Source of the DNA: a virus
Taxonomy: Duplodnaviria > Heunggongvirae > Uroviricota > Caudoviricetes
IMG/VR virus record: IMGVR_UViG_2663762627_000004
Direction: 5' to 3' (one strand)
Length of the DNA: 5,742 bases
Positions 1 through 5,742 of the stretch are shown here, one piece after another. The notes below the pieces were generated by a model, which saw only the letters and a list, made by a program, of their open reading frames with translations, did no database searches and was not told the origin of the DNA. The translations under genes and the position numbers were made by a program. Every line of letters begins with the position of its first letter. The first letter of the stretch is position 1.

Positions 1-249
1 CTGGCATCAACAGGAAGTACAGGCGACTCGTATGACAACGCGATGGCGGAGAGCATCAATGGTCTTTACAAAGCGGAGGTAATACACCGTAAGAGCTGGA
101 AAAACCGTGCAGAAGTGGAACTGGCCACACTCACGTGGGTGGACTGGTATAACAATCGACGATTGCTGGAAAGGCTGGGCCATACTCCTCCGGCAGAAGC
201 AGAAAAAGCTTATTATGCTTCCATCGGAAACGATGATCTGGCAGCCTGA
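1..249 (+). CDS. IS3-family transposase OrfB (DDE integrase-like), C-terminal fragment; 5' end lies outside the window
   Basis: Open frame from base 1 to TGA at 247-249, in the same frame as the listed 43..249 ORF. The YDNAMAES...INGLYKAE...WVDWYNNRRL motif block is typical of IS3-family OrfB C-termini. Confidence 0.8.
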   Translation: MASTGSTGDSYDNAMAESINGLYKAEVIHRKSWKNRAEVELATLTWVDWYNNRRLLERLGHTPPAEAEKAYYASIGNDDLAA

Positions 250-291
250 GTTCACAGATAAAACACTCTCCAGGAAACCCGGGGCGGTTCA
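1..291 (+). mobile_element. 3' part of an IS3-family insertion sequence (IS51/IS6110-like subgroup) including its right terminal inverted repeat; the element continues upstream of the window
   Basis: Frame-1 translation from position 1 is a transposase OrfB C-terminus (GDSYDNAMAESINGLYKAEVIH...WVDWYNNRRL), stop at 247-249. The stretch 264-291 (CACTCTCCAGGAAACCCGGGGCGGTTCA) ends in CCGGGGCGGTTCA, the reverse complement of the TGAACCGCCCCGG-type terminal repeat I recall for IS6110-like elements. Exact IS name not determined. Confidence 0.6.
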
Positions 292-4857: not shown

Positions 4858-5062
4858 GTTCGATTCCTTGCATCGCTTGTCGTGATGCATGAAATCTACG
4901 CAACTGAACTACTACCATACAAGTATGAAGATCGAAAAAAGCCGGAGTGATCACAAAAAAAGGCGTATATTTGCGCTGTGAATGGTTGACAAAAGATGAA
5001 ATAGAATACCTTTTGTCAGCTGACACTTCCTCGTATCTTATTGATAAAATGGATTTATGTTC
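4858..5062 (-). promoter_or_regulatory. rspA upstream control region with palindromic candidate operator sites
   Basis: Contains a perfect 12-bp palindrome TGTCAGCTGACA (5014-5025), an 8-bp palindrome GTGATCAC (4947-4954), and a minus-strand TTGTCA-17 bp-TATACG pair (-35 at 4992-4987, -10 at 4969-4964) as a weak sigma-70 candidate. No experimental mapping is available to me; the sites are candidates only. Confidence 0.3.
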
Positions 5063-5389
5063 CTACGTGCGCCCCCAGCCCGCAACAATGATCAACATGC
5101 CGCAAAGCGCAATCAACGCCCCCGTCCAGTCATAAAGACTTAGTTTCACGCCATCCACAACGCGCAGCCACATCAACGCCGTGCAGACATAAACGCCACC
5201 ATAAGCCGCGTAAACACGCCCACTCGCCGCAGGATGCAACGTTAACAACCAAACAAACAGCGCCAGTGAAATCCCCGCCGGAAGCAACAGCCAGATACTG
5301 GCGTTTCGTTTTAACCACAACCAGGGCAGAAAGCATCCAATAATTTCACACAGCGCAGTAGCAAAAAATAGTAACGTTGTTTTAATCAT
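5063..5389 (-). CDS. ynfA: Small inner-membrane protein YnfA (UPF0060 family, four predicted TM helices)
   Basis: 108-aa hydrophobic product [26 protein letters not shown] ... IIVAGWGRT, stop TAG at 5065-5063. Start set at ATG 5389-5387; the track's longer ORF begins at a GTG 9 nt further upstream (5398). Confidence 0.88.
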
Positions 5390-5465
5390 CTTTGTCACTT
5401 ATTGACATCATGTATAGTTATAGGGCGACATAATATCATCAATATAAACACCCTCCTGGTACGTT

Positions 5466-5492
5466 TTGCGTTCGCAGTGGATGGTGTAGAAT
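5466..5492 (+). promoter_or_regulatory. Candidate sigma-70 promoter for ynfB
   Basis: TTGCGT (5466-5471), a 15-nt spacer, then TAGAAT (5487-5492) with TG immediately upstream, about 30 nt before the ynfB ATG. AGGGAA at 5512-5517 is a plausible Shine-Dalgarno 6 nt before the ATG at 5524. The spacer is shorter than optimal. Confidence 0.3.
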
Positions 5493-5523
5493 CACCTTTA
5501 ATCATTCATACAGGGAATGAATT

Positions 5524-5667
5524 ATGAAAATCACTCTCAGCAAACGAATCGGCCTGCTCGCTTTTCTGCTGCCTTGCGCACTGGCATTGAGCACAACTGT
5601 TCATGCCGAAACTAACAAACTGGTGATTGAGTCTGGCGACAGNNCANNNANCCNNCAGNNCNCNGCN
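5524..5667 (+). CDS. ynfB: Secreted small protein YnfB (UPF0482 family), 5' portion only; frame runs into ambiguous bases
   Basis: ATG at 5524 with a good ribosome-binding site. The product [28 protein letters not shown]|[11 protein letters not shown] has a classic signal peptide. Codons through the N cluster (AGN NCA NNN ANC CNN CAG NNC NCN GCN) are compatible with SAQSRQHAA, the continuation I recall for YnfB. Sequence after 5667 does not continue the remembered YnfB sequence in any forward frame. Confidence 0.65.
5643..5667. other. Cluster of 13 ambiguous (N) bases interleaved with called bases
   Basis: Read directly from the sequence; this is the only place in the window with N characters. 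Confidence 0.95.
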
Positions 5668-5742
5668 CACTGCCTGTACCGGTTCGCTGCCCGCTGTCGG
5701 TTATCAGGATCTGTACGTTATGGCGTGCGGCACCGTCCAGCA

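Follow-up and report, generated by a model that had tools for sequence, protein, structure and literature searches.

The stretch of DNA analyzed here (5,742 nt, hereafter the window) enters the Escherichia coli gene ynfB near its right end, runs into a cluster of ambiguous bases and then continues as sequence that is no longer ynfB. The question raised by this locus is whether the change records a rearrangement in the cell or an error at the end of a contig. As described below, we infer that the last 100 bases are very probably the artefactual right end of a short draft E. coli contig. The features on which the argument turns are as follows.

5524 to 5642, plus strand: the clean 5' part of ynfB (DUF1283 family protein), comprising codons 1-39 and the first two bases of codon 40.
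5643 to 5667, plus strand: the N zone, 25 nt with 13 Ns, in which the called bases correspond to ynfB codons 40-48 (SAQSRQHAA).
5643, 5644, 5647-5649, 5651, 5654, 5655, 5659, 5660, 5662, 5664 and 5667: the positions of the Ns.
5665 to 5666, no strand: the dinucleotide GC, a micro-homology at the breakpoint that is common to ynfB and traI, as found in a three-way comparison with the references.
5668 to 5742, minus strand: a fragment of traI, the conjugative relaxase/helicase gene of F-type plasmids (nt 1562-1636, codons 521-546), which reaches the end of the window.

The start codon of ynfB is located at 5524, with ynfA upstream in divergent orientation. The translation of the clean part was the same as residues 1-39 of reference YnfB, and the identity with ynfB extended over codons 1-48 only. 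Positions 5000-5642 were 100% identical to the ynfA-ynfB region of many complete E. coli chromosomes, and the chromosomal sequence, ynfA followed by ynfB, has good support as far as 5642. When the region was aligned to reference ynfB, as had been proposed in an earlier note made from the sequence alone, 5668-5742 was not contiguous with the gene, and every chromosomal alignment obtained with BLAST ended at 5642. The earlier note had also given MEKEQWND as the continuation of YnfB after SAQSRQHAA, and the reference protein does continue in this way. In the window, the same frame reads HCLYRFAARC... instead. None of the three forward frames from 5668, all of which are open to the end as had been noted, gave YnfB, and neither the rest of the gene up to its stop codon nor the following speG was found there. 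In the E. coli genome search, one of the approximately 5,390 places with ynfA-ynfB was on a record classed as a plasmid rather than on a chromosome.

We examined whether ynfB is naturally prone to interruption. In each of the 5,384 complete E. coli genomes with ynfB, at least 80% of the gene was present as one contiguous stretch, with 98.2-100% identity, and ynfB was therefore ruled out as a natural hot-spot for breaks or insertions. Further, in ten related contigs ynfB was uninterrupted and followed by speG; its product was 113 aa long in nine of them and was called as 118 aa in the tenth (L011). A separate observation concerns an 83-aa YnfB variant (P0076) that one E. coli genome encodes and that carries an in-frame deletion of 30 residues starting right after ...SRQHAA. 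The deletion starts at the same codon as the switch to traI in the window, a coincidence that seems accidental. The deleted block of the variant ends in ...DAA, and a short direct repeat (the HAA/DAA codons) thus probably mediated that deletion.

The last approximately 75 bp had been considered impossible to assign. A search with 5668-5742 on its own gave an assignment. In the complete-genome collection, 3,006 E. coli records contained this segment, at 74 of 75 positions, as the opposite strand of traI. The matching places, all annotated as traI, were on plasmids in 3,002 cases and on chromosomes in 34. The same segment also matched, again at 74 of 75 positions, 3,761 plasmids in PLSDB, 3,623 of which are predicted to be conjugative. 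The traI tail is antisense to ynfB; its reverse frame is open and reads LDGAARHNVQILITDSGQRTGTGS, as in reference TraI, with identity at all 24 amino acids of residues 522-545. The GC content rises from 46% to 61% across the switch from ynfB to traI.

The sole mismatch to traI is at 5723, where the window has G and the references have A, in the third position of the codon for His527. The G was present in no full-length match of either collection, and the matches listed were 98.7% identical over the 75 nt. It may represent a rare allele, or else an error in a read. The change is synonymous and in this respect resembles a true allele more than a random error, suggesting that the traI part may be good sequence.

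The switch between the two genes is sharp. It falls between 5666 and 5668, with an N at 5667, and the references have only the GC dinucleotide in common at this point; the BLAST alignment to traI accordingly spans 5665-5742. No IS end or other repeat was found at the junction in 5643-5742. The join was also unique. With 5400-5742 as the query, no record among 5,426 complete E. coli genomes was matched with at least 80% coverage. A search for the junction pattern, in which the Ns were treated as wildcards, matched nothing in either the GTDB representative contigs or the JGI metagenome contigs. Likewise, among 5.8 billion proteins searched, none covered the tail of a chimeric product consisting of YnfB residues 1-48 and antisense traI, and the proteins retrieved were ordinary or otherwise truncated YnfB proteins only. 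Thus, in the collections searched, the junction occurred in no independent assembly of the species.

These results bear on the possibility that the junction is real, having arisen in the strain or in a subpopulation when illegitimate recombination of the chromosome with an F-type plasmid joined ynfB to traI. Such an event could take the form of an Hfr-like integration, an F-prime, or a plasmid with captured chromosomal DNA. Both halves are authentic E. coli sequence of high identity, the one difference from traI lies in a third codon position and is synonymous, and a sharp switch with a 2-bp micro-homology fits illegitimate recombination. However, the join was found in none of the 5,426 complete genomes nor in the other collections searched, and traI continues for only 75 nt before the sequence stops. 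Integration of F normally proceeds via IS elements, and the ynfB/traI boundary has no IS end. The Ns also argue against a real junction. A clonal junction would yield no Ns. If the Ns are instead ascribed to a mixture of rearranged and wild-type molecules, conflicts with wild-type ynfB would be expected on the right-hand side of the breakpoint. That side, 5668-5742, is clean, and the Ns are all on the left-hand side. We therefore consider a real junction unlikely. Its specific form, an IS-independent, Hfr- or F-prime-like junction that runs from ynfB codon 48 to traI codon 546 through the 2-bp micro-homology and truncates both genes, is similarly improbable.

The N zone itself provides further evidence. 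The window contains 13 non-ACGT characters, every one of which is N; they are clustered within 25 nt and directly abut the ynfB/traI junction. The called bases of the zone were identical to reference ynfB at 12 of 12 positions (probability by chance, 6e-8), and only 4 of the 12 matched traI in register. The called bases are hence compatible with codons for SAQSRQHAA (YnfB residues 40-48), in agreement with the earlier reading of the way in which Ns and called bases are interleaved. We also considered a divergent traI allele as the source of the called bases. When the pattern was searched without its ynfB flank, there was no match in the GTDB representative contigs, which rules out a variant traI allele within that collection.

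It had been proposed further that the pattern is a consensus made from two overlapping sequences. In its strict form, a sequence ending in ynfB and a traI sequence would overlap by 25 nt, and the columns at which they disagree would each carry an ambiguity code, shown here as N. The N zone does have clean sequence on either side and lies directly against the switch, its length of 25 nt resembles a k-mer or a minimum overlap, and ynfB and traI differ at 10 of the 13 N columns. However, Ns occupy 10 of the 18 differing columns and 3 of the 7 agreeing columns, so that they are not enriched at the differences (Fisher p=0.67), and 8 of the 12 called columns keep the ynfB base even though traI differs there. 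Such a consensus is thus very unlikely to have produced the zone. Another second sequence in place of traI was also sought among 17,478 25-mers from the window, the ynfB locus and the traI locus, in all registers and on both strands; the best candidate fitted 21 of the 25 columns, which is the level expected by chance.

The Ns might instead reflect natural polymorphism, with a mixed culture or several ynfB alleles giving rise to them independently of the traI tail. Beyond the presence of ambiguous calls, nothing points in this direction. The identity of 98.2-100% across the 5,384 genomes corresponds to very few variable positions over 342 nt, so that 13 variable sites within 25 nt are out of the question, and the Ns are the only ones in the window and touch the breakpoint. 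We regard polymorphism as scarcely conceivable.

The left end of the window is informative about the nature of the record, and the features concerned are the following.

1 to 291, plus strand: the terminal 291 nt of an IS3-family element, with the inverted repeat ...CCCGGGGCGGTTCA at their end.
330 to 2424: a prophage end beside rspB, with a truncated, Rv2179c-like exonuclease ORF (151 aa), an excisionase (83 aa, DUF1233) and an integrase (426 aa).

Positions 1-293 were 100% identical to the 3' end of an IS3-family transposase in strain AH21, and this element is present at a median of 4 places per genome. A left end within a multicopy IS is typical of a break between short-read contigs and supports the view that the window is the whole of a small draft contig. 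From left to right, the gene order is the right end of the IS3-family element, the truncated prophage 3'-5' exonuclease gene, excisionase, integrase, rspB, rspA, ynfA and ynfB. Apart from its right end, the window is an ordinary chromosomal segment.

Several side observations were made in this region. The end of the IS3-family element adjoins the exonuclease gene approximately 930 bp deeper than in AH21 (L003, 1793 versus 2724). In the best 8 complete-genome matches listed, the match to positions 1-700 was split into 2-3 pieces, and the exact junction between the IS and its target was hence not seen in these 8 matches. The IS/exonuclease junction has the appearance of an IS insertion specific to this strain, or of a deletion next to the IS. 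In related contigs, this prophage end adjoins prophage genes of the dicB/ydfE type, and the region is disrupted by different IS elements (of the IS3, IS66 and IS1 families) in different strains.

Taken together with the traI tail and a join found in no other sequence searched, the general part of the earlier reading, a misjoin or a low-quality contig end, stands, and its account of the Ns as a consensus of two sequences does not. We propose that the reads behind the last 100 bases were poor or in conflict, such that about half of the 25 ynfB columns could not be called. The traI sequence would probably have come from an F-type plasmid in the same sample. The cause would most probably have been a chimeric read or template, generated by ligation, PCR or an overlap error, or a wrong extension of the contig end by the assembler or a gap-closing program. 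A chimera of this kind would make the contig stop inside a gene that is normally single-copy, leave an overhang of about one read length, and put weak or contradictory base evidence right at the join. The distance from the first N to the last base of the window is exactly 100 nt (the N zone of 25 nt plus the tail of 75 nt), and this geometry resembles a read length, although the resemblance is only suggestive. Literature on how assemblers behave at conflicts provided no specific support beyond the existence of conflict-resolution settings. One of these, the 'conflict resolution' setting of CLC ('vote' in published use), does not explain the N pattern observed here.

The importance of the feature is a matter of quality control only. 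Taken at face value, the record would suggest that ynfB is truncated or fused and that the chromosome carries plasmid tra DNA, and an uncorrected join could mislead gene-presence calls, the detection of plasmids or Hfr strains, and pangenome clustering. The remedy is to trim the contig at 5642. If the junction were real, it would represent a rare IS-independent recombination between plasmid and chromosome, which would be of modest interest and belong to a known class.

Each half of the window's right end is a known gene. Compared with E. coli ynfB, which lies between ynfA and speG, positions 5524-5667 represent codons 1-48, with all 131 called bases identical, but the window lacks codons 49-113 and speG and has antisense traI in their place. 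Compared with traI of F-like (MOBF12/IncF) plasmids, 74 of 75 nt and 24 of 24 amino acids are shared, but the window has only an internal piece of 75 nt, on the strand opposite to ynfB and outside any tra context. Homology at IS2, IS3 or gamma-delta gives rise to the classical Hfr and F-prime junctions. As in those junctions, F-type tra DNA in the window is directly beside chromosomal DNA. In contrast to them, the boundary has neither an IS nor substantial homology, only the GC at 5665-5666; further, the junction is inside traI, where it would inactivate transfer, and is unsupported elsewhere. The feature as a whole matches the known category of chimeric ends of draft contigs. As in such ends, unrelated replicons are joined with almost no homology, the join is no more than about one read length from the end and has a cluster of Ns at it, the join is unique in public data, and the other end of the contig is in an IS repeat. 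It differs from them in its N pattern, which a simple consensus of two sequences does not reproduce.
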